A stretch of 64,000 nt of DNA from Candidatus Babeliales bacterium (GCA_050250855.1 JBFWNW010000001.1:376279-440278); one strand, 5' to 3'. Numbered from the stretch's first letter, positions 6,736-58,955 are shown. Notes: generated by a model from the sequence alone, not told the origin. Made by a program: numbers and translations.

Positions 6736-7431
6736 TTACTTTTTCCACCAGTTAAAATTTCTTACCGAATCAAAGCATGAAGAGGTGAACTCTTTTACCG
6801 TATCAACAATTGCGTAAGGATTGTAATACCAGGTTGCAAGGCTTGCTGCAAAGCCGCAGAGAGCATAAAAATTATATTTGCTTGAAATATGTTTTATAGT
6901 TCCCCAAGGCGCTTTCCATAAGACCCCTTGTTCTAATAAGAAATCTTTATCATCAGAGAAATATTCTGGTTTTTTATCAAAGTTGTTTTTAGCATTTTTT
7001 AATGCTTCATGAAAGACTAATCCATTTGAATGGTGCGTGCTATTTATTTGATCTGCAATAAGTTCATAGTTAATACCCTCTATGGTGATCTTGAGGGTAT
7101 CGCCTTCTTTAAGATCTTTTAAATAGCTATAAGGAAGATAAGTTGGAAAAAATACTTCTTTATTTTTAAGAATGTTGTTAGGATTGCTTGAAAAGCGACT
7201 GTTTTCTTCATTCCATGCCCATACTTCTTGAATCATGTGATGTGGTTGAATGGTTTTATCATTTAAAAAGGTTCTAAGGTCTTTTTCGCTCAGAAGATCA
7301 GTTTTGCACTTGCCAGCGTAAAGAGAGTGTTGCGAGGCAACACATATTTTTCCTTTGACCGTGTTATTTTGCATTGCGTGCATTGAATAGGCGCCTAAAA
7401 GTATGAACGTAATAGTTAATAGTTTTTTCAT
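6736..7431 (-). CDS. Exported paralog-family protein with C-terminal TM + WYYNPY...WWKK tail
   Basis: MKKLL leader; LPYSYLKDLKEGD domain; conserved tail. Confidence 0.8.
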   Translation of the reverse strand: MKKLLTITFILLGAYSMHAMQNNTVKGKICVASQHSLYAGKCKTDLLSEKDLRTFLNDKTIQPHHMIQEVWAWNEENSRFSSNPNNILKNKEVFFPTYLPYSYLKDLKEGDTLKITIEGINYELIADQINSTHHSNGLVFHEALKNAKNNFDKKPEYFSDDKDFLLEQGVLWKAPWGTIKHISSKYNFYALCGFAASLATWYYNPYAIVDTVKEFTSSCFDSVRNFNWWKK

Positions 7432-7461
7432 GTTTTTCCTTTATAAGTTAGTTTTATTTAT

Positions 7462-8181
7462 TTACTTTTTCCACCAGTTAAAATTTCTGAACGAATCAAA
7501 GCAAGAGTAGGTGAACTCTTTTACCGTATCAACAATTGCGTAAGGATTGTAATACCACGTTGCAAGGCCAAGCCCTGAAAGAGCAAATAATCCAAATGCT
7601 GCATACAAAGAGCTTTGTTTTAGGATTGGTTTACGAACGCCGTTTGGCCCATGTCCGTGGAATTGTATGTTATTTATTTTTTCTGTAGGTACAATAATCT
7701 TTTTTTCTAATAAAAGCTTTCGATCATGAGAGAAAAAGTTAGGAGCTTCGTAAAACTTTATCATACTAGCATTATGAGCTTCTTGGAATAAATTATGCGG
7801 TTTATTTCTGGGAAATTCTTTTTGATTAGCGGTAAGTTGGTACGGGGTGCCTGCAATAGTCAAAGAGATTTTTTCACCTTCTTTAAGTCCTTTTAAATAG
7901 TTATAAGGAAGGAAGTCTGGAAAAATTAAATCACTCCATCCAAAGCGAGGATTATCTTCTGACCATGCCCATATTGGTAGCAAGATATCCTCTGGTTTAA
8001 TAGTGTTGTCTTGCAACATTTCTTGGATAGTTTGGCCTGATATTCTTATTTGACCACTACCAGCATAATATGGTGTTGCTGATGTAATGGCAATGTTTCC
8101 TACTATTACAGGGTTTTCTTTTTTCATTGCATGTACAAAGCATGTGCTGAAAGCGAATATTGTAAATAATAGTTTTTTCAT
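7462..8181 (-). CDS. Exported paralog-family protein with WYYNPY...WWKK tail
   Basis: MKKLL leader (ATG 8181, GGAGG upstream); LPYNYLKGLKEGE; conserved tail. Confidence 0.8.
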   Translation of the reverse strand: MKKLLFTIFAFSTCFVHAMKKENPVIVGNIAITSATPYYAGSGQIRISGQTIQEMLQDNTIKPEDILLPIWAWSEDNPRFGWSDLIFPDFLPYNYLKGLKEGEKISLTIAGTPYQLTANQKEFPRNKPHNLFQEAHNASMIKFYEAPNFFSHDRKLLLEKKIIVPTEKINNIQFHGHGPNGVRKPILKQSSLYAAFGLFALSGLGLATWYYNPYAIVDTVKEFTYSCFDSFRNFNWWKK

Positions 8182-8204
8182 AATATCCTCCAAAGATTAC
8201 TTAT

Positions 8205-8963
8205 TTATTTCTTCCACCAGCTAAAATTTCTGAACGAATCAAGCCATGAATAGGTGAACTCTTTTGCCGTATCAACGATTGCGTAAGGATTGTAATACCA
8301 GGTTGCAAGGCCGCTAAGAGCAAGAAAACCAACAGTTGTATAAAGATTTACAAATCTAAAGAGACTTTTATTAATTTTTTGGTTCTGGCTAACGTGTAAT
8401 CTCTTTAAAGTTTCATTGCTAAGAGAAGAAGAGTGTTTTGTTTTTAATGGTGGATTCTCAATAGTTGCATAAGTAAGAATTCCATTATTACCAATTTTTT
8501 CTAGGATTTCAGCTGGGATAGGGTTTCTTTGTTTTGCTTGATTATGTTTAAGCGCTTCTTTATAAGTATAAATATTGTCTTCAGTAGCTATGTTGCAGAT
8601 ATTATACCCTTGTTGCCTTTCTTGCAAAGTATAGCGATGAACCTCATTTTCAAGCTCAATTTGAATAGATATTTTGCCACCATTTTTTAGTTGCTGTAGT
8701 TGTGAAGTATGTAAAAAAGCTGGCAAGTTGTTTGGATTATTATCAAAATTTATGGGGCTTTTAATATTATCTTGCCAGATATATATTTTTTCAAGGCTAT
8801 CATAACCAGAAGCTTCATCGACTAATGCAAAATTAAAAGTCCCCTTATTAATTACTCGTTTTGTATTATGTGTATCTTTAAAGTTTGTATTTGAACGCCT
8901 TTTATCCATAGCAAAAGAGTTGCCTAAGCTTACCAGGGTAAGTATTAAAAATAGTTTTTTCAT
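8205..8963 (-). CDS. Exported paralog-family protein with WYYNPY...WWKK tail
   Basis: MKKLF leader; divergent LPAFL..QLKNGG domain; conserved tail. Confidence 0.8.
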   Translation of the reverse strand: MKKLFLILTLVSLGNSFAMDKRRSNTNFKDTHNTKRVINKGTFNFALVDEASGYDSLEKIYIWQDNIKSPINFDNNPNNLPAFLHTSQLQQLKNGGKISIQIELENEVHRYTLQERQQGYNICNIATEDNIYTYKEALKHNQAKQRNPIPAEILEKIGNNGILTYATIENPPLKTKHSSSLSNETLKRLHVSQNQKINKSLFRFVNLYTTVGFLALSGLATWYYNPYAIVDTAKEFTYSWLDSFRNFSWWKK

Positions 8964-8988
8964 GTTTTTCCTTTATTCTGTTAATCAG

Positions 8989-9432
8989 TTATTTATACTG
9001 CATTTTGTTTATATTAGTTTTCTCTTTTTGCGTAAAACTATTTTTTATAGCATCGCGGTATTTGATCTCTTGAAGTGCTTGTTCAAAACTTCTTTCTTTT
9101 TCTGTATGCGCTGTATCGAAAGCATATTGCTGAGCTTTTAGGCTATACGCTGTATTATCAACGGTTACTGCTAAGCTGTTGCCTTCTTTCATCTCTTCAA
9201 GCTGTTCAAAGGGAAGATAGCGAAAAGTATTATTATACAGAGAAAACATTTGTTTTACATTATTTCCTTGCCATATATGCATAAAAGCAAACTTTTTATT
9301 ATGTTCATTTTCTATAAGGTTGGTTCCATTAAGAGCAATATTAAGCTCTATTGGATGATTCATTGTTTTTTTTTCTTCCATGCCGTGCAGTACGCTTGCG
9401 CTGAGAGCTATGAGTAGTAATAGTTTTTTCAT
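8989..9432 (-). CDS. Exported paralog-family protein lacking the C-terminal tail (possibly truncated)
   Basis: MKKLL leader; YLPFEQLEEMKEGN domain; stops before any TM or tail. Confidence 0.65.
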   Translation of the reverse strand: MKKLLLLIALSASVLHGMEEKKTMNHPIELNIALNGTNLIENEHNKKFAFMHIWQGNNVKQMFSLYNNTFRYLPFEQLEEMKEGNSLAVTVDNTAYSLKAQQYAFDTAHTEKERSFEQALQEIKYRDAIKNSFTQKEKTNINKMQYK

Positions 9433-9444
9433 GATTTTCTCCAT

Positions 9445-11343
9445 TTATTTTCGCCACCAATTAAAACTAGAATTTTTAAACGTATCAACCCATGAGTTGG
9501 TGAACTCTTTTAGAGTGTCAACGATTGAGTAAGGATTATAATACCAGAGTAAGCCTATGCCAAAAAGAGTGGCAGCAGAGCCAACGCCAGCTTTTGTATA
9601 AAAACCCATAGGTAATTTATTTTTATTTTGTTTAGAATTTTCTTGGTTATTTGGTTGCGTAGGCGCCGGGATGATTTTTTTAGGAGCTTTTGGTTTAGGG
9701 TATTTTTTTAAAATAGCATCAAGAGGAGCAATATTCATGCCTTTCAAATCCATAAAGAAAACGCCACCATCTTTTTTTAACAAAGCGAGTTTGCCATTCG
9801 TGTGAAATTCAATACCTTTGATGTCCAAAGTGTTTTCTAATTCTAGGGGCGTTGTAATGTACGTTTCTCTTTCTACTTTTTCTACGAGTGCGCCTTGTTT
9901 TTTTGCTTTTTCTAAAAAAGGATCTTTATGCCTTGTTTGAATCATTAACCATTTTTTGTTGCTCGAGTCTGAGCCAATAGCAAAAAATATTTTATTATCT
10001 TGTGCTACCGTAAAGCAATCTACGGTTTTAAGTTCATACGGAAGGTTTAATCTTTTTATGTAATTATTGACATTATCATAGATATCATAAATATATTTAT
10101 CAGTAAAAAAACCCGGTTGTTCAACTAAAAAGGTTTGATAATTGTTAGTTTTGAGAAAATCTTTGATTTTTGTATAATCAACAAATCTTTTTTTACCGGA
10201 AGTGCGTTGATATTTATTTTCAATAGTTTCATTTTCTAGCTGCCTATTTTTAAGTTCAACTTTTTCATTAAAATCATTTGCAAAGATATACTCTTTAAGT
10301 GTTTGATTAACACCTTGTGGAAAATGGTTTTTATATTCTTCAGACCTTAAGAATAAATTTGTACGCTCTTTAACCTTTTCAGGCGAATTGTTTTGAGTAA
10401 TTATTCTTTTTAAATCCATAAAGAAAACGCCATCATCTTTTTTTAATAAAGCGAGTTTGCCATTCGTGTGAAATTCAATACCTTTGATGTCCCAATCGCT
10501 TTCCAATTCTAGAGGCGTTGTTATGTAGTAGTCGCTCTCATCTTCTTTTTGTGCGAGATTATCTTGTTTGTCGTTTTCTTGGTAAGGATCTTTATATCTT
10601 GTTTGAATCATTAACCATTTTTTGTTGCTCGAGTCTGAGCCAATAGTAAAAAATATTGTGTTATCTTGCGATGCCGTAAAACAGTCTACGGTCCAAAGAT
10701 CTTCAGGAACCTTTAGCCTTGTTACATGATTATTAGCATTGTCATAGATATCATAACATTCAAAATTATCTATCGTGTGAAGAAAAGATATAGAATTGTC
10801 ATTATTTATTTGTATAGGTTGAAATGCGTTAACTAAAAAAATTTGATAATTATTTGTTTTTTTAAAATCTAGAAGTCGAGTGATATGACTATTATTTAAT
10901 ATAAAACATTTTTTATAAAAAGGATCATCTTTTGAAGAGAGTTTAGGACAAAGTTTGCTATAATTTTCATATATAGTGTCATTTTCTAACTGTGTATTTT
11001 TAAGTTCAACTTTTTCCTTAAAATCATTTACAAACATATACTCTTTAAGTGTTTGATTAACACCTTGTGGAAAATGTTTTTTATATTCTTCAGACCTTAA
11101 GAATAAATTTGTACACTCTTTAACCTTTTCAGGCGAATTGTTTTGAGCACTGTTGTTATTTTTTTGTAGAGAGTTTTGTGGGATACTTTTTTTAATAATA
11201 TCCCAATTTTTTTTAGAATTCTTTTTTAAAAGTCCGCTTTGATACCATGCTGGAAAGGTAAAAGGCTTTTGCCTTTCGGTCAACTGCATGCCATGCGCAA
11301 AGCAGGTATTCAGAGCTATGAGTAGTAGTAATAGTTTTTTCAT
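9445..11343 (-). CDS. Exported protein with internal ~250-aa duplication and WYYNPY...WWRK tail
   Basis: MKKLL leader; QNNSPEKVKE...GVFFMDLK unit occurs twice; tail LWYYNPYSIVDTLKEFT. Confidence 0.8.
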   Translation of the reverse strand: MKKLLLLLIALNTCFAHGMQLTERQKPFTFPAWYQSGLLKKNSKKNWDIIKKSIPQNSLQKNNNSAQNNSPEKVKECTNLFLRSEEYKKHFPQGVNQTLKEYMFVNDFKEKVELKNTQLENDTIYENYSKLCPKLSSKDDPFYKKCFILNNSHITRLLDFKKTNNYQIFLVNAFQPIQINNDNSISFLHTIDNFECYDIYDNANNHVTRLKVPEDLWTVDCFTASQDNTIFFTIGSDSSNKKWLMIQTRYKDPYQENDKQDNLAQKEDESDYYITTPLELESDWDIKGIEFHTNGKLALLKKDDGVFFMDLKRIITQNNSPEKVKERTNLFLRSEEYKNHFPQGVNQTLKEYIFANDFNEKVELKNRQLENETIENKYQRTSGKKRFVDYTKIKDFLKTNNYQTFLVEQPGFFTDKYIYDIYDNVNNYIKRLNLPYELKTVDCFTVAQDNKIFFAIGSDSSNKKWLMIQTRHKDPFLEKAKKQGALVEKVERETYITTPLELENTLDIKGIEFHTNGKLALLKKDGGVFFMDLKGMNIAPLDAILKKYPKPKAPKKIIPAPTQPNNQENSKQNKNKLPMGFYTKAGVGSAATLFGIGLLWYYNPYSIVDTLKEFTNSWVDTFKNSSFNWWRK

Positions 11344-11371
11344 GATGTCCTTCATTTAGTTTTTGCTTTTT

Positions 11372-12463
11372 TTAGTTGTAAAGATTTTCATTTCTGTAAT
11401 CAGCTTTATAATTCTTAAATAAACCGGCAACATAGCCTCCAAGGTAGCCAAACCAAGGCTTTGCAGCTTCTTTTGTTTGCTGTGCATATCCCATTAATAT
11501 ATTCATTGGGGTTGTTACTTCTGGCACAGATACTGGTTGTGCTACGAATTTTTCTATGTGCTCTAGAGCGGGTTGCACAGAAAATTCTGGCTGTTCTACA
11601 GCTACCGGTATTTCTAGCTCTGGCGTAGGCAGCGCAGTTTCAGTTTTATTCCACCAGCCAACCTTATTAAAGAAATTTCCTATTGAGCTTGTTACGGTGT
11701 TCAACGTATCAGTCATGGCCTCTGGGTAATAGTAATACGCAGCAGCAGTAGCGCCAATAGTACAAAGACCTACGGTAGCATAGAGCCACAAGCGTGATGT
11801 TGGTTTTATAACTTCACCGAATGTAATATTATTTGTTAGATGCGTGGTGCGATACTCTTTTTCTTTGTTGGCAACGGTTAACTTTTCTTGTAATGATGGT
11901 GCAAACCAGCATAGTTTGGCAGCCTTCATTATATACGGTTGATTTTCAATAGTTACTTCTATTGAATCGCCTTCGCGCATATCTTGTAGTTTTTCAAGAG
12001 GCAAGAATTGCGGCCATTGATGTAGTTGAGGAATGTCACCTTGAGGAGCTAATTTTTTATTCTGTGCATTGTTCATATCAATCCACGTTTTGATAGGAAG
12101 ATATATATTTTCATCATTTTCACCTGTGCCAAAAGCAACTGTTTTAACCTTTGGATCTAGGGTGAAATTAAGGTAAACAGACTGTTTAAGCTCTTTTATT
12201 GGCTCAACTGCCTTTTGGACAGGCTTTTCTGAATTTGTAGAAATACTGTATTCTTGGTTTCCAGAACGTTTTTTAAGTAAGTTCAGAGATGCGGCTGTAA
12301 AAGTAGGCTTATTTAATGTTTGCCCTATCTTAAATTTAGAAGGTATTTTTGAGGCATTTTGGCCGCTACTTGTCAATAGTAGTCGATTAAATTGTGGTTT
12401 TTTCTCCATACCCTGGGTCAAACCGGTGCCAAGGGCTAGAAGGATTAATAATAGTTTTTTCAT
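11372..12463 (-). CDS. Exported paralog-family protein with a degenerate internal tail and a C-terminal extension
   Basis: MKKLL leader; FLPLEKLQDMREGD domain; AYYYYPEAMTDTLNTVTSSIGNFFNKVGWWNK resembles the family tail. Confidence 0.75.
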   Translation of the reverse strand: MKKLLLILLALGTGLTQGMEKKPQFNRLLLTSSGQNASKIPSKFKIGQTLNKPTFTAASLNLLKKRSGNQEYSISTNSEKPVQKAVEPIKELKQSVYLNFTLDPKVKTVAFGTGENDENIYLPIKTWIDMNNAQNKKLAPQGDIPQLHQWPQFLPLEKLQDMREGDSIEVTIENQPYIMKAAKLCWFAPSLQEKLTVANKEKEYRTTHLTNNITFGEVIKPTSRLWLYATVGLCTIGATAAAYYYYPEAMTDTLNTVTSSIGNFFNKVGWWNKTETALPTPELEIPVAVEQPEFSVQPALEHIEKFVAQPVSVPEVTTPMNILMGYAQQTKEAAKPWFGYLGGYVAGLFKNYKADYRNENLYN

Positions 12464-12612
12464 AATAAACTCCATTTTATAGAAATAATATTTAGCATTT
12501 GTCAATTACTATTCTACCCTAAATAGCATAAAAATCAAGACCCTGGCTATAAATATTTTATATTAGAAATAGTATAAGGTTTGGCCAGGTTGGCCGTATT
12601 GAGGGGGGAAAG

Positions 12613-15066: not shown

Positions 15067-15090
15067 AAGAGGCGCACAGAGCGCCCCTTT
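15067..15090 (-). terminator. Probable intrinsic terminator
   Basis: AAGAGGCGC-ACAGA-GCGCCCCTT hairpin directly after the stop of 15090..15377. Confidence 0.55.
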
Positions 15091-15377
15091 TAATTCTTAA
15101 ATTCCCAGAAATTTGGATATTTATTTTCAAGCTCTTTTTCTTTTTGCTTATACAGTCTATCTAAAGCCCTGCGTTGTACAGAACCCTTAGGGAATTGATT
15201 TGCTACATTATCTTTAAACCAATCTTCAAGCTCCTCAAAGTTGGTTACATCTAAATTCGTAAGTTCCTCTTTAATTTGAGAAAAAGTTTGCTGTTGAGCA
15301 GCTCTTCTTTGTTCTGCAGCATTAATGCCCTGAGTAAGCATTAAACCACCGAGTACTAGTATTAGTATTTTCTTCAT
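15090..15377 (-). CDS. Small exported helical protein (cassette family)
   Basis: MKKILILVLGGLMLTQGINA leader shared with 16493 and 17178 ORFs. Confidence 0.8.
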   Translation of the reverse strand: MKKILILVLGGLMLTQGINAAEQRRAAQQQTFSQIKEELTNLDVTNFEELEDWFKDNVANQFPKGSVQRRALDRLYKQKEKELENKYPNFWEFKN

Positions 15378-15556
15378 GAGATTCCTTTTTTTAAAAAACT
15401 ATTATTATCTCTAACTATACGCTATTTTGAGCATAAAAATCAATAAAATAGCCACTTGGGAGGCATTTTCAGGTTTGGGATTGTTTAAAAATGCCTTTGA
15501 GTTGGGCTGGGCAAAAAGAAAGAGGCGCGGAGTTTTATCCCTGCGCCTCTTCTTTC
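15378..15556 (-). repeat. Repeated intergenic unit copy 1 (terminator + inverted repeats + sigma70-like promoter + RBS)
   Basis: On minus strand: GAGGCG hairpin, TTGATT-18bp-TATAGT (15443..15414), AAGGAATCTC-ATG. Confidence 0.8.
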
Positions 15557-15577
15557 TTAGATTTTTGAACATGAGTA

Positions 15578-16309
15578 TTATTCTAACGGTTTATACCCGA
15601 GTTCTTTTACAATATCAATATCAATTTCAGGTTTTTCTATATAAGGGTTGAAGAAAGACTCTGATTCTAATATTTTTTGAGCTTCTGCTTTAAAATATTT
15701 TTCAGCGTTTTTAAAATGAGGGTCTGCTGCTAATTCTAATGCTATATTTAATTTTTCTAAGGGCGTGTAATCTGGCGTTGTAAAGAGGTATGAGGCAATA
15801 TTGCTGATTACATCATAGGGCATATTTGCTCCAGGTAGCTTCTGTTTAAAAGCAATGATGGCACCCCATACTTTACCAGTGTTGCCGCCAAGGATTTTTC
15901 CATGAGAAGCATTCAATTTGTGGGCAGTATTATTTAAAATTTTTTTTGCTTTTTCTTTAAAAGCAACTTCAGCTATTTCTGGTAAAAAATCATGTTGTTT
16001 TCTAAGTTCAAAAAGCCCTTCTAGATTTTCAGGTGATTTTTTTACATCAGTAATAATTTCTTCTGTTGTTTCTTTTTCAAGCTCTAGACTTTTTTTAGTA
16101 TAAGCTTTTGCTACAGCAAGGTAACCCGGGTCATTTTCTGTCGGGTATTCAATAAGTGCATTTTGATAAGCTACAGCGAGTTCATCAAAATTTTGTGCGG
16201 CATTGATTGCCTGAAGATGGTGCTCTAATTTTTCAGGTCTATCACTTGCATTAAGAAAAAGCGTTGCAAAAGCAAGCATGATGGTCAGAGTGAAAATTTT
16301 ATTCTTCAT
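15578..16309 (-). CDS. Exported protein (cassette family) with F-box-like motif
   Basis: ATG 16309 after the same RBS as its neighbours; leader MKNKIFTL..LNA; MPYDVISNIASYL. Confidence 0.75.
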   Translation of the reverse strand: MKNKIFTLTIMLAFATLFLNASDRPEKLEHHLQAINAAQNFDELAVAYQNALIEYPTENDPGYLAVAKAYTKKSLELEKETTEEIITDVKKSPENLEGLFELRKQHDFLPEIAEVAFKEKAKKILNNTAHKLNASHGKILGGNTGKVWGAIIAFKQKLPGANMPYDVISNIASYLFTTPDYTPLEKLNIALELAADPHFKNAEKYFKAEAQKILESESFFNPYIEKPEIDIDIVKELGYKPLE

Positions 16310-16480
16310 GAGATTCCTTTTTTTTAAAAAACTATTATTATCGCTCACTATACGCTATTTTGAGTATAAAAATCAATAAAATGGCCATTTGGATGGCATT
16401 TTCAGGTTCGTGCGTTTTTAAAAATGCTTTTGATTGCTAGGGTAAAAGAAAGAGAGGCGGGGATAACTCCGCGCCTCTCT
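16310..16480 (-). repeat. Repeated intergenic unit copy 2
   Basis: Same layout as copy 1; AGAGAGGCG..CGCCTCTCT hairpin at 16451-16480. Confidence 0.8.
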
Positions 16481-16492
16481 TGTTGTATTGTT

Positions 16493-16969
16493 TTACTTTG
16501 AGATAAGTATATAGAACAGGATATCTTTATGATTATCCAATATGTGCTTTTGCTGAGAAGTAAGATTCTTGGTTTTCAATACTTCTTTAACCTTTTTATT
16601 AAGTGCATTCTCTATTGATGGGAAACGAAAAACTTCTAGAGCTTCAGAATCGTTTTCGATAAAGTTTACAAGCTCTTCTGCAGTTTCAAAGTTTTGTATC
16701 TTTTGAGTGATTTCGTCTATACCTTCTTTGAAGGTTGGCTCAATTTTCTTAAGTTGACGTTCAAATTCATCTTTAAGTACAGCAGGAATATTTGGAGCAA
16801 GAGGAGCTATGACTTCCACAGTCCACCATTGGTGAAGATCATTCAAGTTTGCTGCTTTAAGATTTCTAAGTTCATTCAAAAGTTTTCCAACGTTTTTTTG
16901 CTGTTGTGCAGCATTAATGCCTTGAGTAAGCATTAAACCACTGAGTACGAGTATTAGTATTTTTTTCAT
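16493..16969 (-). CDS. Small exported helical protein (cassette family)
   Basis: MKKILILVLSGLMLTQGINAAQQQK leader. Confidence 0.8.
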   Translation of the reverse strand: MKKILILVLSGLMLTQGINAAQQQKNVGKLLNELRNLKAANLNDLHQWWTVEVIAPLAPNIPAVLKDEFERQLKKIEPTFKEGIDEITQKIQNFETAEELVNFIENDSEALEVFRFPSIENALNKKVKEVLKTKNLTSQQKHILDNHKDILFYILISK

Positions 16970-17143
16970 GAGATTCCTTTCTTTTTTAAATACTACTATT
17001 ATTCCTCACTATACGCTATTTTGGTTATAAAAATCAACAAAATGGGCATTTGGATGGCATTTTCAGGTTTGGTGGCTTTTAAAAAGGCCTTTGGTTGCTA
17101 GGGGGGCAAAAAGAAAGAGAGGCGGGGATAACTCCGCGCCTCT
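16970..17143 (-). repeat. Repeated intergenic unit copy 3
   Basis: Same layout; hairpin nearly identical to copy 2. Confidence 0.8.
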
Positions 17144-17177
17144 TTAAAATATCTAAAATATTATTGATTTAATATTT

Positions 17178-38195: not shown

Positions 38196-38274
38196 TACTT
38201 CGACTCGAGTTGAAACTCTCGCTCAGTATGACTGGTTTCTCGGTCTCCCTGAGCGAACAGAGTGAGTCGAAGGG
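38196..38274 (+). repeat. Compact REP doublet upstream of trxB
   Basis: TACTTCGACTCG..CTCGCTCAGTATGAC..CCCTGAGCGAACA..GTCGAAGGG. Confidence 0.85.
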
Positions 38275-38302
38275 TAAATATAATTTTAAAAGGAGTTTTT
38301 TT

Positions 38303-39769: not shown

Positions 39770-40846
39770 ATGAAGCAACTTGGTTTACTTCTTATTATTT
39801 TAGCGTTGCATACGGTGGGCGTGAGCTTAAGCATGCAGCAGCCCAAGCCTTGGCGCAGCAAAAGCTATGGTAAAATTCTAAAAAAAGTCGGTATAGATGG
39901 GGTTAGAGAGTTCGTTAATCAAGGCTGGGATGTTAACGAAAGGGATATTGATGGCGATTCAGTTCTTACGCATGCGCTTGGTTATGCACGAACTTTTAAA
40001 TATTTGATTGAGAATGGTGCGAATATACATCAAAAGACTGATAAGCGTTATGGTCGTTATAATCATGAAGGAGAAACCTTTCTTCATCAAGCCGCTGAGT
40101 CTGCCTATTCTGATACGGTCCTCATACTTATTCAAGCAGGCGCTGATGTCAATGCGCTTACAAAGAAGGGAGAGACACCCCTTTTTTATGCTTGTAATGG
40201 CATGTATGAAGATGAAAATCATGATGAGGATAGAATTAAGACTGTGCAGCGATTGCTTGCGCATAGTGCAGACGTAAACAAAAGGCCTGATTGTGGCAGT
40301 TCTGTGCTCCATAAACTGACTGGTGAATGGGGTAGAGGGGTAAAGGTAACTGAGTTACTTCTTGCTTATGGTGCGGATGTAGGTCTGGTAGATAATAAAG
40401 GCAAAACATGTCTATCTTATGCTGTGGGTCGGGTGTATGGATTATACATGAAATATAGTTTGGCTCATAGTAATGTTGATTTAAAAAAAATGGAAGAGGA
40501 TATTGGCCGGGGCTTTTTGATCACGCTTGAAGGCGGCATGCAATCTCTTATGAATAATACAGCTTCTAAAATGCGCGCATCGTATTTTTTACGCGATACT
40601 CTTACAGAGCTTTGTTTAATACGTGAACATGGCGGCGATTCTGTTTTTGGAAAAGATTTTTTGCCGCTTGATATGTTCAAACTTATTTTGAAAGAGACAA
40701 AAGATCAAAGTCAATCAACAAAAGTTTCTTTGCGCCCATCAGCAAGGCGCATACAAGAGATTATTACTTTTTTTAAAGATGAAGGTTTTGATCAAAGAGA
40801 TCCCGGTTTTATGCAGCAGTTAGAAGAATATAAAAATAAACAATAA
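39770..40846 (+). CDS. Exported ankyrin-repeat protein with C-terminal F-box-like motif
   Basis: GETFLH, GETPLF, GADVN repeats; LPLDMFKLIL. Confidence 0.9.
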   Translation: MKQLGLLLIILALHTVGVSLSMQQPKPWRSKSYGKILKKVGIDGVREFVNQGWDVNERDIDGDSVLTHALGYARTFKYLIENGANIHQKTDKRYGRYNHEGETFLHQAAESAYSDTVLILIQAGADVNALTKKGETPLFYACNGMYEDENHDEDRIKTVQRLLAHSADVNKRPDCGSSVLHKLTGEWGRGVKVTELLLAYGADVGLVDNKGKTCLSYAVGRVYGLYMKYSLAHSNVDLKKMEEDIGRGFLITLEGGMQSLMNNTASKMRASYFLRDTLTELCLIREHGGDSVFGKDFLPLDMFKLILKETKDQSQSTKVSLRPSARRIQEIITFFKDEGFDQRDPGFMQQLEEYKNKQ

Positions 40847-40856: not shown

Positions 40857-41987
40857 ATGATGTATATAAAACAGCGTGGTTTACTTTTTATTTTGGCGTT
40901 GCATACGGTGGGCGTGAGCTTAAGCATGCAGCAGCAACCTTGGCCTTGCAAAAATTATTATAAAGCTCTCAAAGATGCCAGCGTAAAAACGATTGCCGAC
41001 TGGCTTAAACAGGGCTGGGACATGAAGCAAAAGGATGAAACGGGCTATTCAGTTCTTTGGCGTGTACTAAATCGCCCTGATATGATTACCTTTTTGATTG
41101 AGCAGGGTGCTGATATACACGAACGTGATCATATGGGAAAAACCTTTCTTCATGAAGCTGCTTGGCAGGGTTGTCCGGAGGTTGTTGAGCTTCTTATTGC
41201 AAACGGTATTGAGGTAAACGTACTTACTAGTAATGGAACTACGCCACTTCTTGATGCTTGTGAGCGAACGCATGCAAAGGAGGAGGGTGATACGAGATTT
41301 AAGATTGCCCAACAATTGCTTGCTCATGGTGCAGATGTAAACAAAAGGCCTAATTATGGCTATTCAGCGCTCCATAAATTGGCTTACAGTGGTTTGACAA
41401 AGGTAGCTGGGTTACTTCTTGCTCATGGTGCAGATGTGAGTTATGTACATACCAGTCAAGATTCCAGATGGCCCAGTGCAGGATCCATGCTGCGTCGTGC
41501 TCTGCAGGAAGGAAACAATGACATTGCTCATTTATATATACAGTATAGTTTTGCTCATAATAATGTTGATTTAAAAGAAATGAGAGAGGATGTTTCTTGC
41601 GGGTTTATGGATCGAAATAGAAAATTTTTTTCTGGGAATGATGTTTCTGCTTGCTCTCTGCACATGCTCAAAGAGGGCATGAAATCTCTTATGAATGGTA
41701 CAGATTGTAAATTGCATGCAACATGTTTTTTAGGCGACATGCTTACAAAGTTTTGTTTAATGCGTGAGCATTGTGAAGATTCTGTTTTTGATAAAGATTA
41801 TTTGCCGCTTGATATGTTCAAACTTATTTTGCAAGAGGTAAAAGATCAAAGTTCACTAACAGAAGTTCTTTTGCGTCCATCACGAAAGCGCATACAAGAG
41901 ATTATTACTTTTTTTAAAGATGAAGGCTTTGATCAAAGTGATCCTGATTTTATGCAGCAGTTAGAAGAATATAAAAACAAACAATAA
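40857..41987 (+). CDS. Exported ankyrin-repeat protein with C-terminal F-box-like motif
   Basis: Ankyrin motifs; LPLDMFKLIL; DPDFMQQLEEYK tail. Confidence 0.9.
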   Translation: MMYIKQRGLLFILALHTVGVSLSMQQQPWPCKNYYKALKDASVKTIADWLKQGWDMKQKDETGYSVLWRVLNRPDMITFLIEQGADIHERDHMGKTFLHEAAWQGCPEVVELLIANGIEVNVLTSNGTTPLLDACERTHAKEEGDTRFKIAQQLLAHGADVNKRPNYGYSALHKLAYSGLTKVAGLLLAHGADVSYVHTSQDSRWPSAGSMLRRALQEGNNDIAHLYIQYSFAHNNVDLKEMREDVSCGFMDRNRKFFSGNDVSACSLHMLKEGMKSLMNGTDCKLHATCFLGDMLTKFCLMREHCEDSVFDKDYLPLDMFKLILQEVKDQSSLTEVLLRPSRKRIQEIITFFKDEGFDQSDPDFMQQLEEYKNKQ

Positions 41988-41998: not shown

Positions 41999-43105
41999 AT
42001 GTACAGAAAACAGCGTTGGTTATTTTTTATTTTAGCGGTGCATACAGTGGCTGTGAGCTTAAGTATGCAGCATCCTTGGGATTGCAATAGCTATTATGAT
42101 GCTCTCAAAGATGCAAATGAAAAAACGATTACCGAATGGCTGGAGAATGGATGGGACATTAACCAAAAGGATAAAAGAGGCTATTCTGTTCTTCGGTCTG
42201 TAATTCGGCGTCCTGATATGCTTACATTTTTGATTGAGAAGGGTGCTGATATACATGAACGGGATGATAAGGGAGAAACCCTTCTACACAAAGCTGCTTG
42301 GCATGGCTGTCCGGAGGTTGTAGAGATTGTTATTGCAAACGGTATTGAAGTAAATGCACTTTCTCATGATGGAACTACGCCACTTCTTTGTGCTTGTGAG
42401 CGAACGCACGTAGAAAAGCAGAAGGAGGAGAGATTTAAGATTGTACAAAAATTGCTTGCGCATGGTGCAGATGTAAACAAAAGAAGTTGTTGTGGTAGAT
42501 CAGTGCTTCACGAGCTGGCTTCTAAAGATTTAGTAGATATAGCTAAATTGGTTCTTGCTTATGGTGCGGATGTAAGCCAGATAGATAATAAAGGTAAAAC
42601 CTGCCTATCTTGTGTTGCGAGGAATAACGTAAAAATGGCTCATTTATACATCAAGTATAGCTTGGCTCATAGTAACGTTGACTTAAAAAAATTGAGAGAG
42701 GATGGTTCTGGCTTTCTGCATAAATATATTGGATCGCAACCAGCGCTATCTCCCGAAAGTATTTTTTTCTGTTCTCTTCCAATGCTCAGAGAGCAAATGC
42801 AATCCGTTATGAATAATACAGATTCTAAAATGCGGGCATCGTATTTTTTATGCGATACACTTACAGAGCTTTGTTTAATACGTGAACATGGCGGCGATTC
42901 TTTTTTTGGAAAGGATTTTTTGCCGCTTGATATGTTCAAGCTTATTTTGCAAGAAGCTCGCACCATAAGTCAATCAACAGAAGTTCCATTGCGTCCATCG
43001 CTAAAGCGCATACAAGAGATTATTACTTTTTTTAAAGATGAAGGCTTTGATCAAAGTGATCCCGATTTTATGCAGCAGTTAGAAGAATATAAAAATAAAC
43101 AATAA
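41999..43105 (+). CDS. Exported ankyrin-repeat protein with C-terminal F-box-like motif
   Basis: Ankyrin motifs; LPLDMFKLIL; DPDFMQQLEEYK tail. Confidence 0.9.
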   Translation: MYRKQRWLFFILAVHTVAVSLSMQHPWDCNSYYDALKDANEKTITEWLENGWDINQKDKRGYSVLRSVIRRPDMLTFLIEKGADIHERDDKGETLLHKAAWHGCPEVVEIVIANGIEVNALSHDGTTPLLCACERTHVEKQKEERFKIVQKLLAHGADVNKRSCCGRSVLHELASKDLVDIAKLVLAYGADVSQIDNKGKTCLSCVARNNVKMAHLYIKYSLAHSNVDLKKLREDGSGFLHKYIGSQPALSPESIFFCSLPMLREQMQSVMNNTDSKMRASYFLCDTLTELCLIREHGGDSFFGKDFLPLDMFKLILQEARTISQSTEVPLRPSLKRIQEIITFFKDEGFDQSDPDFMQQLEEYKNKQ

Positions 43106-43115: not shown

Positions 43116-44222
43116 GTGATGTACAGAAAACGGCGTGGTTTAGTTTTTATTTTAGCGTTGCATGCGGTGAGCGCGAGCTTGGGGATGCAGCCTCCAAAAA
43201 GCTATTATGATGCTCTAAAAGATGCCAGTATAGAAACGATTGATAAGTGGCTTGAACAAGGCTGGGATATTAAGCAAAAGGATCAAAGAGGTTTTTCAGT
43301 TTTTTCGTCTGTACTAAATCGCCATGATATGGTTACCTTTTTGATTGAGAAGGGTGCTGATATACATGAACGTGATCATAGGGGAGAAACCCTTCTTCAT
43401 AGAACTGCCTGGGAGGGCTGTTCGGAGGTTGTTGAGATTCTTATTGCAAGAGGTATTCAGGTAAATGCACTTTCTCATGATGGAACTACGCCACTTCTTT
43501 GTGCTTGTGAGCGAACGCATGCTAAAGAGCAGAATGAAGAAAGATTTAAGATTGTACAAAAATTGCTTGCGCATGGTGCAGACGTAAACAAAAGGCCTAA
43601 TTATGGCAGTTCAGTGCTCTATAAACTGGCATATAGTGGTTTGATAAAGGTAGCTGAGCTACTTCTTGCTCATGGTGCAGATGTGAGTCATGTACATTCC
43701 TGTGAAGGATCCATGCTGCGTCGTGCTCTGCAGGAAGGGAACAATGACATTGCTCATTTATACATACAGTATAGTTTTGCTCATAGTAACGCTGATTTAA
43801 AAAAAATGAGAGAGGATCTTTTTTGCGAGTTTATACGTAAATATGCAAAATTTTTTTCTGAGGAGGGCGCTTCTTCTTGTGCTCTGCAAATGCTCAAAGA
43901 TGACATGAAATCTCTTATGAATAATACAGCTTCTAAAATGCGCGCATCGTATTTTTTACGCGATACGATTATAGAGCTTTGTTTAATGCGTGAGCATTGT
44001 GAAGATTCTGTTTTGAGAAAAGATTATTTGCCCCTTGATATGTTTGAGCTGATTTTGCAAGAAGCTCGCACCATAAGTCAAACAACAGAAGTTCCTTTGC
44101 GTCCATCGCCAAAGCGCATGCAAGAGATTATTCGCTTTTTTGATTCTGATGCTGAAGAGTGTCGTCAAAATAGTTCTAGTTTTATGCAGAAACTAGAAGG
44201 ATATAAAAGTAAGGAACAGTAA
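43116..44222 (+). CDS. Exported ankyrin-repeat protein with C-terminal F-box-like motif
   Basis: Ankyrin motifs; LPLDMFELIL. Confidence 0.9.
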   Translation: MMYRKRRGLVFILALHAVSASLGMQPPKSYYDALKDASIETIDKWLEQGWDIKQKDQRGFSVFSSVLNRHDMVTFLIEKGADIHERDHRGETLLHRTAWEGCSEVVEILIARGIQVNALSHDGTTPLLCACERTHAKEQNEERFKIVQKLLAHGADVNKRPNYGSSVLYKLAYSGLIKVAELLLAHGADVSHVHSCEGSMLRRALQEGNNDIAHLYIQYSFAHSNADLKKMREDLFCEFIRKYAKFFSEEGASSCALQMLKDDMKSLMNNTASKMRASYFLRDTIIELCLMREHCEDSVLRKDYLPLDMFELILQEARTISQTTEVPLRPSPKRMQEIIRFFDSDAEECRQNSSSFMQKLEGYKSKEQ

Positions 44223-45220
44223 TGCATAAGTACTATATTTTTTATTTAGCTGCAAGTCTGGTGAGCGTTAATTTTGGTATGGATGAAACGTCAGAAAAAC
44301 CAAAATCATTACTTGACGCGGCAGGGCAAGGAAGCTTGATGCACGTTCAAGAATTTTGTAACAATGGCGCTAATGTAAATCAACGAGGTAAATATGGCCA
44401 TACGCCCCTTGAAAAGGCTTTTTTGGGTAATCATCTAGATATCGCTCAATTTCTTATTGAAAATGGTGCTGATGTAAATCAAAGCGGTCAATATTTTACC
44501 CCGCTATTTCAGGCCATTCAAAAAGATAGCTTAGATGCTGTAAAATTTCTTATTGCACAGGGTGCCAATGTAAATCAACCATGTAATGACGATACAGGAC
44601 TTCGCTTGGCAGCTGGAAGAGGCTGTTTAGATATCGTTCAATTTCTTGTTGCCAAAGGAGCTGAGGTAAACCCATTACCTACTAAATATGGGAAGCAAAC
44701 GCCACTTCTTTCTGCCTTAGAAAATGGGCATCTAGAAGTTGCTGCCTATTTGCTTGCGCATGGTGCAGATATAAAGATCCCACTTGGAAAGGTAAAAGGG
44801 TTAATAGCTACTGAAAATTTAAAAAAGCTTCTACAGGAAGGTAAGTCAGCTATAGATCGTGAAAATTTTAAAAATGGGCTTAAAAATGAAGATTTGGATT
44901 ATCATAAGGATGCAATCAATTCCTTAACAAAAAATCTAAAAGAACTAGCTGAAGAGTTTATTAATAATAAATTCTTTATCCCACTTGAACAACAATCATT
45001 GCTCACCTTATGCTGTACGCGTGAGCTGTGTCAGAATTCTTTGTTTTATAAAGATTTCTTGCCGTCAGATATATTCAAGATCATTATTAAGCAGGCAGAG
45101 ATATTAGCATTATCAAATGTGCAAGCAACGGAGTTAGTGAGCTTTTTTAGGGAGATTGAGTATGAGCAAACTGATCCTGATTTTATGCAGAAGTTAGAAG
45201 AATATAAGAACAAGAGATAA
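44222..45220 (+). CDS. Exported ankyrin-repeat protein with C-terminal F-box-like motif
   Basis: GANVN/TPL repeats; LPSDIFKIII; DPDFMQKLEEYK. Confidence 0.9.
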   Translation: MHKYYIFYLAASLVSVNFGMDETSEKPKSLLDAAGQGSLMHVQEFCNNGANVNQRGKYGHTPLEKAFLGNHLDIAQFLIENGADVNQSGQYFTPLFQAIQKDSLDAVKFLIAQGANVNQPCNDDTGLRLAAGRGCLDIVQFLVAKGAEVNPLPTKYGKQTPLLSALENGHLEVAAYLLAHGADIKIPLGKVKGLIATENLKKLLQEGKSAIDRENFKNGLKNEDLDYHKDAINSLTKNLKELAEEFINNKFFIPLEQQSLLTLCCTRELCQNSLFYKDFLPSDIFKIIIKQAEILALSNVQATELVSFFREIEYEQTDPDFMQKLEEYKNKR

Positions 45221-45222: not shown

Positions 45223-45984
45223 ATGAAGCTCTATATTTTTTGTTTTGTCATAAGTTTGGTGAGCGTTAACTTTGGAATGGAAAGAAAACCAGGGCATTTT
45301 AGTTATGATGATTATCTTTTATTTGCAATTTCTGACGATTTAGTTAGAACTAGCAAGGTTATTCTTTTAGCGCAAAAAATTGAGCCATATGAATTAATTC
45401 AAAGTCAGTTCATAGAAAAACCATCTCATATTACTTCGATAGACAAGTTTGATATTATCAAATTATTTATTGAGAAAGGCTCTCAAGCAAGCGAAACAGG
45501 ACGCTTAGATCTCGTTAAATTTCTTATTGAAAAAGGCGCTCGAGTAAATCAATCACCTTCTAGACTTAGTCCTTTTATTATGGCTTTGGAAAAAGGTTAT
45601 TCAGATATTGCTGCATATTTACTTGTTCATGATGCAGATACAACAAGGCTTAAAGATTTAAAAGAAAATTATATAAATATTAAGCCATTGATAATAGAAA
45701 CTCTTCAAAAAGCAGTAATCAGTATTATTGTAGGTAGTTTCTTCAACAAATTAGAACAACAGTCATTGCTTGCCTTGTGCCTTATTCGTGAATATTGCGA
45801 TGATTCACCCTTTGGTAAAGATTATTTACCCCTTGATATGTTTAAAGAAATTAAAAAGCGGGCAGAGGCTTTATCGCTTTCCGTTTGGCAAACATTGGAA
45901 TTAATAAGTTTTTTTAGGGAAATTGGTTGTGAACACAGTGATCCTGATTTTATGCAGAAACTAGAGCAGTATAAAGGTTTATAA
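45223..45984 (+). CDS. Exported ankyrin-repeat protein (few repeats) with C-terminal F-box-like motif
   Basis: LVKFLIEKGARVN; LPLDMFKEI; DPDFMQKLEQYK. Confidence 0.85.
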   Translation: MKLYIFCFVISLVSVNFGMERKPGHFSYDDYLLFAISDDLVRTSKVILLAQKIEPYELIQSQFIEKPSHITSIDKFDIIKLFIEKGSQASETGRLDLVKFLIEKGARVNQSPSRLSPFIMALEKGYSDIAAYLLVHDADTTRLKDLKENYINIKPLIIETLQKAVISIIVGSFFNKLEQQSLLALCLIREYCDDSPFGKDYLPLDMFKEIKKRAEALSLSVWQTLELISFFREIGCEHSDPDFMQKLEQYKGL

Positions 45985-50215: not shown

Positions 50216-50827
50216 ATGGTTTCATATTCTCCTAAAAAACTGTTCTTTTTTATGATTTTTTCTGCATCATGCATGCAGGGTTCAGATCAATCCTTTGATG
50301 CTTTGAAGGAAAAAACTAAGACTAAATGGCGACACATACAATCTCAAGTTTATGAGTTTGCAGATACTGTTAAAGAAAAAGCTCCTGAATTTTTCAATAC
50401 TATGAAAAACAAAGCTTTTGAGTTTAAAGATAAATATTTACCGCAGCAAGAAGCGCAACAATCTGAGTCTAGCGCTATCAAAGAATCTGTGCCAGGAGCT
50501 GCAGCGACCCCTGCTGATGTTTTACCAGCTCAAGAGACAGCAGCGGCAAAAGAAGTTGCTATGTCTGATAACGCGGTGCAAACCATTCAAGGTCTTGAGC
50601 AAAATAAAGATGTAAAAGTTGCTTGGTTTTCAAAGCGCACGGCATTGTTTTTTGGCGCAGGTGCAGTAGCCCTTATTTCAGTTGGTGCGATTGTTTATAT
50701 TCTTTATGAGGATGGTACGCTTACAAAACTCGCTGATGTAGTCAAAGAACATCCGGTCAAAACTGGTTTGGCGTGTTTAGCTACAGCACTTACTTTTTAT
50801 GCAGGATATAGTTACTGCACGAAGTAA
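50216..50827 (+). CDS. Exported/membrane hypothetical protein
   Basis: Leader plus two C-terminal hydrophobic segments; GAGG RBS. Confidence 0.7.
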   Translation: MVSYSPKKLFFFMIFSASCMQGSDQSFDALKEKTKTKWRHIQSQVYEFADTVKEKAPEFFNTMKNKAFEFKDKYLPQQEAQQSESSAIKESVPGAAATPADVLPAQETAAAKEVAMSDNAVQTIQGLEQNKDVKVAWFSKRTALFFGAGAVALISVGAIVYILYEDGTLTKLADVVKEHPVKTGLACLATALTFYAGYSYCTK

Positions 50828-57559: not shown

Positions 57560-57646
57560 ATGGATCCTTTTTAATGGTTTGTAATTTGTTATACTTTAGC
57601 AACAAGATACCTTGTAAATAAAGATAAAAGTGAAAGGAAGTTTCTT

Positions 57647-58285
57647 ATGATTAAAAAAATTATATTCAGCACGCTGGTGTTTACTACTATGAATGCGATG
57701 GATGAGAATTCTTTGTTTATGCAATCGTATAAAAAAACTCTTGCCGCTATAAATGCCTATCAGAAGGTAGAGCCTAATCAGATGAATTTTCTGTATGCTA
57801 TGAAGGAAGATACTAAAAAAATCGTACTTAAAGATTTTTTATCCTGTGCTGAGCTTAAAAACGCAAGGGCTCAAACATTTACTCTGGCTCAATATATACA
57901 TCTTAAAGAGGCGGCAAGAGGTAATGCTTTGTTTAACGCTCAGACTACAGTTATACTGGCCGGGCTTTATTCTTATTGGTCTATTTTCGATATCAATTGG
58001 GATTTGAATTATGATTGTTTTATGGACGAAAGATACCATTGGCATCGTAGGTGGAAGGTAAGTCAAAGATCCACAGATGAGAAAATAGAATTTTTCAGAG
58101 ATAAAGTATTATGGTGGGGAGGTATTTTAGCTTTAGCTGTAATTTTTCGAAAACATTGTCGTTCTGAGTATCTTCTAAATACAGAAAAAGTAAATAATGC
58201 TCTTTCTCATGTTATGAGCAAAAAAGAAGCTGCTAAATATAACGAAACGTTGATGCGTAATATGGTTGATCGAGAAAAGTTATAA
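57647..58285 (+). CDS. Exported/membrane paralog A
   Basis: Leader MIKKIIFSTLVFTTMNA; N- and C-termini shared with the next gene. Confidence 0.75.
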   Translation: MIKKIIFSTLVFTTMNAMDENSLFMQSYKKTLAAINAYQKVEPNQMNFLYAMKEDTKKIVLKDFLSCAELKNARAQTFTLAQYIHLKEAARGNALFNAQTTVILAGLYSYWSIFDINWDLNYDCFMDERYHWHRRWKVSQRSTDEKIEFFRDKVLWWGGILALAVIFRKHCRSEYLLNTEKVNNALSHVMSKKEAAKYNETLMRNMVDREKL

Positions 58286-58295
58286 GGAGGTTTCT

Positions 58296-58955
58296 ATGAT
58301 TAAAAAAACTATATTCAGTACGCTGGTGTTTATTACCATGAATGCTATGGATAATAATTCTTGTTTTATGCAATCGTATAACAAAACGCTTGCCGCTATT
58401 AATGCTTATCAAAAAGTAGAACCTAATCAGATTAACTTTTTGTATGCCATGAAGAATGAACCGTTAAGAAAAGGTGCGCAGCAAGATCTTTTATCATGTG
58501 CGGAGCTTAAGAATGCGAGAGCTCAAGGTTTTACTATTGACTCATATAGATCTAGAATTTTTACCAATCAATGTATTCCTTTTATTACAGGTCTTTTTAT
58601 AATCGGAAATGCTGGTATTGTTTCGAATAAAATCATACAAGACATACAAAAAAATAGAAAAGAGCTCACAGCTGCTTGGGATTCGGATACAGGTCGTAGG
58701 TATGAATATACATCACAATACACAGCTTTTATAGATTGGGAAAATGATCGATTAATAAAAATCACGTTTGATAAAGTACTTTTAGGAGGACTTTTAGTTT
58801 TCACCGCACTACTTACTAAAAAGTTTAGCATTAATCCTTTTTTGATGAATAAAAAAAAATGTACCGATGCACTTCTTCATGTCACTAGTAAAAAAGAAGC
58901 TGCTAAACATAACGAAACGTTGATGCGTAATATTGTTGATAGAGAAAAACTATAA
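58296..58955 (+). CDS. Exported/membrane paralog B
   Basis: AGGAGG before ATG 58296; same termini as paralog A. Confidence 0.75.
   Translation: MIKKTIFSTLVFITMNAMDNNSCFMQSYNKTLAAINAYQKVEPNQINFLYAMKNEPLRKGAQQDLLSCAELKNARAQGFTIDSYRSRIFTNQCIPFITGLFIIGNAGIVSNKIIQDIQKNRKELTAAWDSDTGRRYEYTSQYTAFIDWENDRLIKITFDKVLLGGLLVFTALLTKKFSINPFLMNKKKCTDALLHVTSKKEAAKHNETLMRNIVDREKL

Follow-up and report, generated by a model that had tools for sequence, protein, structure and literature searches.

Methionine is the commonest residue predicted at +1, the first position of the mature protein, among the exported proteins of a Candidatus Babeliales bacterium (GCA_050250855.1; G000), and it is mostly followed by Glu, Asp or Gln. 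The trait was first seen in a stretch of 64,000 nt (JBFWNW010000001.1:376279-440278, corresponding to G000:C1:376279-440278), which is termed the window in the following. The G000 genome comprises 1.22 Mb in 11 contigs, has a GC content of 36% and an estimated completeness of 95%. A sequence-only reading of the window had listed 14 proteins of three unrelated families in which a Met directly follows the apparent signal peptidase site. It had proposed either a host-targeting or stability signal on Sec-exported effectors or a fusion of leader modules in front of the native ATG of captured genes. The observation is confirmed here; it applies genome-wide and recurs in several families of the Babeliales, with predicted cleavage sites throughout. 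The explanation we prefer, and to which we assign an even chance, is that Sec leaders became attached ahead of intact open reading frames (ORFs), and that the old start Met was retained at +1, partly under selection.

ORF calling in G000 yielded 1171 ORFs, whose starts were picked by a heuristic that maximises signal-peptide likeness. A lenient screen classified 542 of them as signal-peptide-like or membrane-anchor-like, and a stricter filter retained 286, which form 211 BLAST families including 184 singletons. All cleavage sites were called either by a heuristic -3/-1 site picker or by eye, i.e. they are predicted. Met occupies +1 in 51 of the 286 strictly scored exported proteins, compared to a Met background of 1.9%, and each of the positions +2 to +12 has 2-13 Met. 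A second peak at +4 (13 Met) is consistent with cases in which the picker chose a site three residues too early. Independently of the picker, Met followed by Asp, Glu or Gln (M[DEQ]) occurs at a frequency of 0.022 per residue at residues 16-20 and of 0.015 at residues 21-25 of signal-peptide-like proteins, compared to ~0.003 at later positions of these proteins and to 0.004 in the remaining ones. At residues 15-28, it is present in 101 of the 542 signal-peptide-like proteins. The preceding residue in these 101 proteins is Ala in 35, Ser in 24 and Gly in 23 cases (A/S/G together 81%), whereas the share of A/S/G before ten control X[DEQ] dipeptides amounts to 16-47%. Position -3 is held by Leu (23), Ser (20), Ala (13), Val (12), Ile (9) or Thr (8). 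Cys precedes Met in seven of the 101, which are possible lipoproteins with a mature Cys-Met start. In general, the leaders do not resemble those of lipoproteins (signal peptidase II), as +1 is Met and not Cys, nor those of type IV pilins, as the hydrophobic segment precedes the Met and polar sequence follows. The 51 Met-type proteins belong to 37 of the 211 BLAST families, and 25 of the 184 singleton families are Met-type (binomial versus 2%: 7.5e-14). An excess of +1 Met beyond paralogy is thus borne out. This means, the pattern reported for three families is real but was understated, as it is genome-wide. The predicted sites precede the Met, and Met remains in excess after paralogy is accounted for; these are the two points that the sequence-only reading had named as decisive. 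The cleavage register, which is derived from statistics and not from a validated predictor, puts the predicted cut directly before the Met.

The residue at +2 is biased as well. E/D/Q follow a +1 Met in 45 of 51 proteins of G000 compared to 90 of 235 proteins with another +1 residue (p 2.6e-11). The same holds for G001, a genome of the same GTDB family of which 1 Mb was read, with 25/29 versus 52/190 (p 1.6e-9). The native second residue is E/D/Q in 9-12% of the non-exported proteins with a Shine-Dalgarno-like motif in support of their ATG. Asn at +2 after Met was found in none of the 51 proteins of G000 and in one of the 29 of G001. Beyond +2, the M[DEQ] proteins share no conserved motif. Neither native N-termini nor the general +2 preference (38%) explain E/D/Q at +2, which calls for an additional filter or for selection.

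In the window, the three groups are mutually unrelated: six paralogues without a Pfam family at 6.7-12.5 kb (array-1), six ankyrin proteins at 39.8-46.0 kb and an orphan pair at 57.6-59.0 kb. The 14 N-termini of the list are correct as given, and ATG is the junction codon in every case. Array-1 occupies 6736-12505 on the minus strand. Member 1 (231 aa, 6736..7431) has its leader at 7375-7431 and its +1 Met codon at 7372-7374 (HA↓MQ, with the arrow at the predicted junction); it ends with a C-terminal hydrophobic helix and a WYYNPYAIVDT tail. Member 2 (239 aa from its MKKLL start, 7462..8181; leader 8128-8181, Met codon 8125-8127, HA↓MK) has a GGAGG upstream of the leader ATG. It is followed by member 3 (252 aa, 8205..8963; leader 8910-8963, Met codon 8907-8909, FA↓MD) and by member 4 (147 aa, 8989..9432; leader 9382-9432, Met codon 9379-9381, HG↓ME), which lacks the C-terminal tail. 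Member 5 is the longest (632 aa, or 636 aa when taken as 9445-11355; 9445..11343; leader 11290-11343, Met codon 11287-11289, HG↓MQ). Its translation contains an internal duplication of ~250 residues, with NNSPEKVKE.TNLFLRSEEYK...GIEFHTNGKLALLKKD being present twice. Member 6 (363 aa) spans 11372..12463 with the leader at 12410-12463 and the Met codon at 12407-12409 (QG↓ME).

The six ankyrin-repeat paralogues lie on the plus strand. The first three share the junction LS↓MQ: paralogue 1 (39770..40846; leader 39770-39832, Met codon 39833-39835), paralogue 2 (40860..41987; leader 40860-40925, Met codon 40926-40928) and paralogue 3 (41999..43105; leader 41999-42064, Met codon 42065-42067). Paralogue 4 (43119..44222; leader 43119-43184, Met codon 43185-43187) has LG↓MQ, paralogue 5 (44222..45220; leader 44222-44278, Met codon 44279-44281) FG↓MD, and paralogue 6 (45223..45984; leader 45223-45276, Met codon 45277-45279) FG↓ME. 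The orphan pair, also on the plus strand, consists of member 1 (212 aa, 57647..58285; leader 57647-57697, Met codon 57698-57700) and member 2 with an MIKKTIF start (58296..58955; leader 58296-58346, Met codon 58347-58349), both with NA↓MD. All 14 proteins open with MKK, MK, MIKK or MYRK, and a hydrophobic run comes next. The heuristic signal-peptide score is passed by 12 of them; the orphan pair with its Ser/Thr-rich hydrophobic region fails.

The +1 Met is found in proteins specific to the lineage. In G000, a reciprocal best hit in G001 exists for 3/51 Met-type proteins, for 52/235 other exported proteins and for 392/629 non-exported proteins. Viewed from the other side, 43 of 194 exported G000 proteins without a hit in G001 have +1 Met compared to 3 of the 55 for which a reciprocal best hit exists, and the corresponding numbers for G001 are 24/136 (no hit) and 4/66 (conserved). 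A test on orthologues against G001 was unusable, as reciprocal best hits were available for just 12 Met-type proteins, most of which have doubtful leaders. A Pfam scan comprised 36 of the 51 Met-type and 100 of the 235 other exported proteins. Among the 36, 25 belong to no family, two combine WD40 and beta-helix, four are ankyrin proteins, and PLD-like, DOT1, NADAR and one weak tRNA-synthetase-like match were obtained. All classic envelope proteins, i.e. BamA, PBP, SpoIID, Amidase_3, FKBP, thioredoxin, MscS and VKOR, are found among the 100 proteins without +1 Met. The same 100 contain many effector-like proteins as well, with WD40, beta-helix, ankyrin or methyltransferase domains. The expected difference between effector-like and housekeeping proteins therefore holds as a lineage-specific bias, with no classic envelope protein carrying the Met; +1 Met marks a subset of the lineage-specific exported proteins and not all effector-like ones. 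Extra transmembrane segments are not linked to Met in either genome (9/51 versus 27/235 in G000; 1/29 versus 40/190 in G001).

Other Babeliales genomes were screened alike. Met is the top +1 residue in G001 (family f1, 1 Mb; 29/219) and in G005 (f2, 200 kb; 10/42). It is found at +1 in 8/57 exported proteins of G040 (f5, 200 kb) and in 4/30 of G048 (f8, 188 kb), compared to 1/30 in G041 (f10, 200 kb) and 1/32 in G047 (f4, 200 kb). The samples of G010 (0/5) and G045 (1/6) are too small to be read. Since a 50 kb control stretch from E. coli yielded one strictly scored signal peptide, the Babeliales genomes with low Met counts and the conserved proteins serve as controls. The low counts in G041 and G047 show that the pipeline itself does not create +1 Met. 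The trait is older than the genus, yet patchy across Babeliales families. The residue after the Met is more varied in G005, G040 and G048 than in G000 and G001, with F, Y, L, H, G and S occurring in G005 and G040; only G000 and G001 showed the P2' preference for Gln or an acidic residue.

The leader ATG is the codon at which translation starts. The 3' end of the G000 16S rRNA carries an anti-Shine-Dalgarno sequence, and of 101 Met-type genes, 63 have a Shine-Dalgarno-like 4-mer before the leader ATG and 5 before the internal ATG. The latter value equals that of other internal ATGs (4.5%). Among the 14 genes of the window, such a motif is present before nine leader ATGs and before no internal ATG. 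This placement argues against a second start as well as against untranslated leaders. No RNA data set was listed with the stretch of the window, which is present in three DNA runs from one landfill-metagenome study only.

Were the internal ATG a second translation start, one gene would yield both an exported and a leaderless cytoplasmic form. The exact position of Met at the junction, by which both forms would share an identical mature sequence, agrees with this idea, and leaderless homologues are known as stand-alone genes. Moreover, ~38% of the Met-type leader starts lack a Shine-Dalgarno-like motif, motif-free initiation occurs in G000, and at least one public gene call (P0006) uses the internal ATG. 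Nevertheless, we regard a second start as improbable. Besides the motif counts, GAA, GAT, GAG, CAA or CAG comes next to the internal ATG, whereas real starts are mostly followed by Lys or Asn codons. The alternative start codons GTG and TTG are not enriched at +1: GTG accounts for 1/7 and 0/14 Val codons, and TTG/CTG for 8/23 and 4/16 Leu codons, compared to backgrounds of 0.13-0.27. Furthermore, a start codon would not require a small residue at -1.

An artefact, with the leaders as untranslated ORF extensions in AT-rich DNA or the pattern as a product of chance and paralogy, is largely refuted and hardly credible. The choice of starts by signal-peptide likeness favours such an error, C2:91551 probably has a false leader since its homologues start at the Met, and the exported set contains false signal peptides (MurA, MurD, PGI, PadR). 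The Shine-Dalgarno-like motifs lie, however, at the leader ATG, the leaders show the n-h-c layout with mostly A/S/G at -1, the enrichment persists in singleton families, and the same pipeline gives few Met in two Babeliales genomes and in the conserved proteins of G000.

In three families, the +1 Met coincides with the initiator of leaderless homologues. The ankyrin superfamily of G000 has 28 leader-bearing and 20 leaderless members. The latter start with M-x(4-8)-LFxA..., the former read ...G↓MEPESLIEAV... or ...G↓MQPPKSYYDAL.... A leaderless homologue starts within three residues of the +1 Met for 11 of 19 testable Met-type proteins, with ten of these 11 being ankyrin proteins, compared to 4 of 16 non-Met controls. 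Upstream of 13 leaderless ankyrin genes examined, no in-frame hydrophobic leader was found; in most of them, stop codons interrupt the frame a few codons upstream, and several are preceded by AGGA- or AAGG-type motifs. A cluster of ~17 leaderless ankyrin genes is located at ~55-80 kb of contig C3 near leader-bearing ankyrin arrays (C3 39-43 kb). It constitutes useful material for dating the gain or loss of leaders.

For array-1 and the orphan pair, a word-indexed search returned only the copies in G000. A profile search with array-1 against 1.84 billion representatives yielded 40 hits, whose junctions were read by eye. Seven are the G000 copies themselves, and 15 from other sources have a leader followed by Met, with Glu (10), Lys (2), Gln (2) or Asp (1) as the next residue. 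The others comprise seven with a leader and another residue, six leaderless proteins, one fragment and four giant repeat proteins. The leaderless homologues begin with MENETISG, MENNVING or MNAKTING and align with leader-bearing A↓MESKIVIKG and A↓MEAETSNIIEG. The array-1 core domain (G-x-I-x-I-V-P-N ... FPxYLPxxLLKDLKEGD ... Q..YRY..G.FE) is also present in ~30 diverged proteins (relatives P0119-P0153), some of which are leaderless mini-versions of 121-145 residues. An AlphaFold model of member 2 had a pLDDT of 47 at first and of 85.7 once it was built on 35 sequences. For its core, no match was found in the PDB (best Foldseek E 0.77), from which a new fold does not follow, and VIA-align matched only the C-terminal helical hairpin (Z 5.2).

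The third case is a DOT1-type protein of 222 residues (histone H3K79 methyltransferase family) encoded at G000:C1:468633-469301 (L123:8633-9301), in which a leader is followed by Met at +1. Its homologues number 112 at E below 1e-5; many of these bear leaders, and some are named Candidatus Babeliales. In two leaderless homologues, the start is 13 residues ahead of a conserved Tyr, at the very position of the +1 Met of the G000 protein. The suggested fusion of leaders in front of a native ATG is therefore supported in so far as the Met aligns with leaderless initiators of ankyrin, array-1 and DOT1-like proteins. The part concerning a common module was not sustained, as unrelated families have no leader DNA in common, and capture from a host found no support for the two orphan families, for which the word-indexed search returned no homologue outside G000.

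The Met is also retained in diverged proteins. In an alignment of 35 array-1 sequences with a mean column identity of 14%, the Met column (24/35) ranks 15th of 199, level with the initiator column, and among five window paralogues, it is one of 11 invariant columns. By eye, 20 of 28 leader-bearing array-1 members keep the Met, including 15 of 22 from other sources. In diverged paralogue pairs with a homologous leader and <30% identity of the mature N-terminus, 22 of 43 ordered pairs retain a +1 Met, compared to 11 of 46 for other +1 residues; these pairs originate from 8 (Met) and 10 (other) families and are not independent. Together, the coupling of Met with E/D/Q and its retention in diverged members argue for some selection.

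How could the addition of leaders have proceeded? G000 has two secretin matches, which are its sole trace of a dedicated secretion system, and one signal peptidase I match (C4:187009-187695), whereas VirB4 and FHIPEP, i.e. a type IV or type III marker, found no match in the genome at 95% estimated completeness. For Babela, a type II system is given as the sole secretion system found (PMC4378268). With the only visible exit being Sec-dependent, a cytoplasmic protein would need a Sec leader. A leader of 17-24 residues (MKK, hydrophobic run, small residue at -1) may have been placed directly before an intact ORF, so that the mature protein would begin with the old initiator Met. The Met would then be the P1' residue of an ordinary Sec/signal peptidase I leader and the former start codon of the ORF. 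For E/D/Q at +2, two routes are conceivable: either only ORFs with these residues are exported and cleaved well, or an original Lys or Asn was tuned. Changes from Lys to Glu or Gln and from Asn to Asp would require a single base each. The Met-acid pair would subsequently be kept above drift, be it as a good P1'-P2' pair for the peptidase, for sorting or as a host-like N-terminus.

Several points weigh against this scenario. The picker placed its best site right before the Met in only 5 of the 14 window proteins, and all sites are heuristic. In seven, the best site is 2-8 residues upstream, e.g. S↓MHAMQ three residues upstream in array-1 member 1 and VS↓LSMQ in ankyrin-repeat paralogue 3, and the orphan pair was not scored. 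Within families, the residue at +1 varies between M, S, A and V, and in a crude count of all pairs, Met is kept in 26% of diverged pairs versus 13-21% at neighbouring positions. A plain carry-over of native N-termini fails to explain E/D/Q at +2. A loss of leaders with the internal Met being reused as start would give identical alignments. The starts of leaderless array-1 and DOT1 homologues outside G000 are database gene calls. The public call P0006, which corresponds to the G000 DOT1-like protein itself, starts at the internal Met and misses the leader, so some 'leaderless' homologues may be mis-called. Furthermore, +1 Met is rare among leader-bearing DOT1-like homologues. Finally, no leader DNA common to unrelated families was detected when leaders with 150 upstream bases were compared by BLASTN, which leaves the grafting of a shared module unsupported. 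A mobile leader cassette was rejected, too: among the first 40 inspected of 152 cross-family hits, none spans the leader through to the Met. Those 40 are dispersed upstream repeats, overlapping divergent neighbours or matches of ~25-60 bases around SD-ATG-AAA-AAA. The lack of shared leader DNA implies that each leader arose on its own or is old. Dispersed repeats of ~40-130 bases recur upstream of many unrelated genes, for instance at C1:319891, C1:305092 and C1:59545.

Leader addition can coexist with a second explanation, which we deem possible, albeit on the unlikely side: Met-(Glu/Asp/Gln) may be a selected N-terminal code on Sec-exported effectors. Such a code would mark the next step, either outer-membrane passage by the type II machinery or vesicle loading, or would provide a stable NatB-type, host-like N-terminus. 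The coupling of +1 and +2 in both G000 and G001, far above the native share, speaks for it, as do the persistence of Met across array-1 relatives despite their strong divergence, the recurrence of the pattern in four Babeliales families and its restriction to effector-like or orphan proteins, with none of BamA, PBP, SpoIID, amidase, FKBP and Trx being included. On the other hand, only about one fifth of the lineage-specific exported proteins have the Met and many effector-like ones lack it, Asn is nearly absent at +2, the residue after Met varies in the G005 and G040 samples, no motif extends beyond +2, and no partner enzyme or receptor has been identified. Residues that are 'stabilising' according to the N-end rule occupy +1 in 56% of the lineage-specific versus 29% of the conserved exported proteins in G000, but in 44% of both groups in G001. 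Simple N-degron avoidance, which fits the former genome and fails in the latter, was discarded for this reason. In its boldest form, which we consider rather doubtful, the idea amounts to a 'Met rule' in several Babeliales families, where P1' Met plus a P2' acidic residue or Gln would be a selected mark that decides on the onward fate of Sec-exported effectors or on their survival in the host cytosol. If true, this would be a bacterial counterpart of both the Bacteroidetes Q-rule and PEXEL-type N-termini, and Dependentiae effectors would be readable from sequence. Four of eight GNAT matches were observed in genes that look leader-bearing (C2:255809-256384, C4:10496-11071, C2:263140-263808 and C1:322549-322995). 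If exported, these acetyltransferases would be candidate modifiers of new N-termini or of host targets.

Related N-termini are known from eukaryotes. Plasmodium PEXEL processing leaves x-E/Q/D N-termini, and NatB substrates begin with Met-Asp/Glu/Asn/Gln. The predicted mature N-termini described here resemble both, but in contrast to PEXEL, they have no RxL motif and would be generated by a bacterial signal peptidase, and in contrast to NatB substrates, Asn is almost absent at +2. Eukaryotic organelle proteins obtain targeting signals by N-terminal extension and can be dually targeted from two in-frame starts. Here, too, a targeting peptide stands before a complete ORF with an in-frame Met at the junction. 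The differences are that a bacterium, Sec leaders and dozens of unrelated families are concerned and that there is no sign of internal ATG use.

The closest bacterial parallel considered is the Q-rule of Bacteroidetes, according to which signal peptidase I substrates carry Gln at +1 that is cyclised to pyroglutamate (PMC5837995 and PMC10653852). Both cases concern a lineage-specific preference for a single residue at +1 of Sec/signal peptidase I substrates that is visible genome-wide. The Q-rule affects most exported proteins, whereas Met affects ~18%, is combined with E/D/Q at +2, avoids conserved housekeeping envelope proteins and is patchy across families; for Met, no modifying enzyme is known. 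With 51/286 in total and 3/55 (G000) and 4/66 (G001) among conserved proteins, Met does not dominate in the manner of the Q-rule. In addition, it is probably of historical origin as an old start codon. Signal peptides have been reported for 79 of 126 ankyrin proteins of Babela massiliensis (PMC4378268) and for 44% of the CDS and 78% of the ankyrin proteins of Chromulinavorax destructans (PMC6561590). The ankyrin and eukaryote-like proteins of Dependentiae represent the same protein class and the same inferred route, Sec followed by the type II machinery. A term search in these two papers and in a comparative TM6 paper (PMC4776705), which likewise reports many ankyrin proteins with signal peptides, did not find 'methionine'. 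The literature searched by full text, supplements excluded, yielded no report of Met at +1.

Dependentiae are widespread protist parasites with no known dedicated effector injection system. A +1 Met picks ~50-100 lineage-specific secreted proteins from sequence alone, which corresponds to 4-9% of the ORFs called, and the arrangement suggests a simple recipe for the birth of effectors: a Sec leader before an intact ORF. Should the Met-acid pair turn out to be under selection, signal peptidase I substrates would be known to follow a lineage-specific +1 rule in only two cases. Since gene callers can choose the internal Met and miss the leader, as seen for one protein, secretome estimates for the phylum may be too low.

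Besides the 14 proteins, the window encodes two additional exported orphans of the Met type that had been absent from the original list. One (50216..50827, plus strand) has its +1 Met codon at 50273-50275 (SASC↓MQ), where Cys at -1 permits a lipoprotein reading, too. The other (61448..62050, minus strand; Met codon 61976-61978, NSSS↓MD) has a neighbouring paralogue without +1 Met at 60765-61304. Three exported proteins of the window had been named as counter-examples, which holds for the amidase (VCA↓AS) and for the Trx-like protein (LFA↓KF; E 0.0015 for Pfam thioredoxin, under the cut-off). The GH64 beta-1,3-glucanase (PF16483, E 1.8e-50; 5139..6404, plus strand) is ambiguous: its Met codon at 5187-5189 lies in ...NTFTMQATGD, which can be read as T↓MQ or QA↓TG.

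The conserved 110 C-terminal residues of the ankyrin array with their LPLDMFKLIL tail were searched for an F-box, and no Pfam match was obtained up to an E of 10. As the best PDB profile match was also poor (E 0.23, an unrelated regulator), the idea of F-box ankyrin effectors was dropped. Three small exported paralogues at 15090-17684 (minus strand) have near-identical leaders, MKKILIL..LMLTQG, and mature proteins that start with INAAQQQ or INAAEQR; they belong to no Pfam family and lack a +1 Met. Directly upstream of the ankyrin array, an ORF of 555 residues (38081-39748, plus strand) is located whose translation resembles a membrane-anchored thioredoxin reductase, apparently fused to a C-terminal thioredoxin domain with a CPSC motif.

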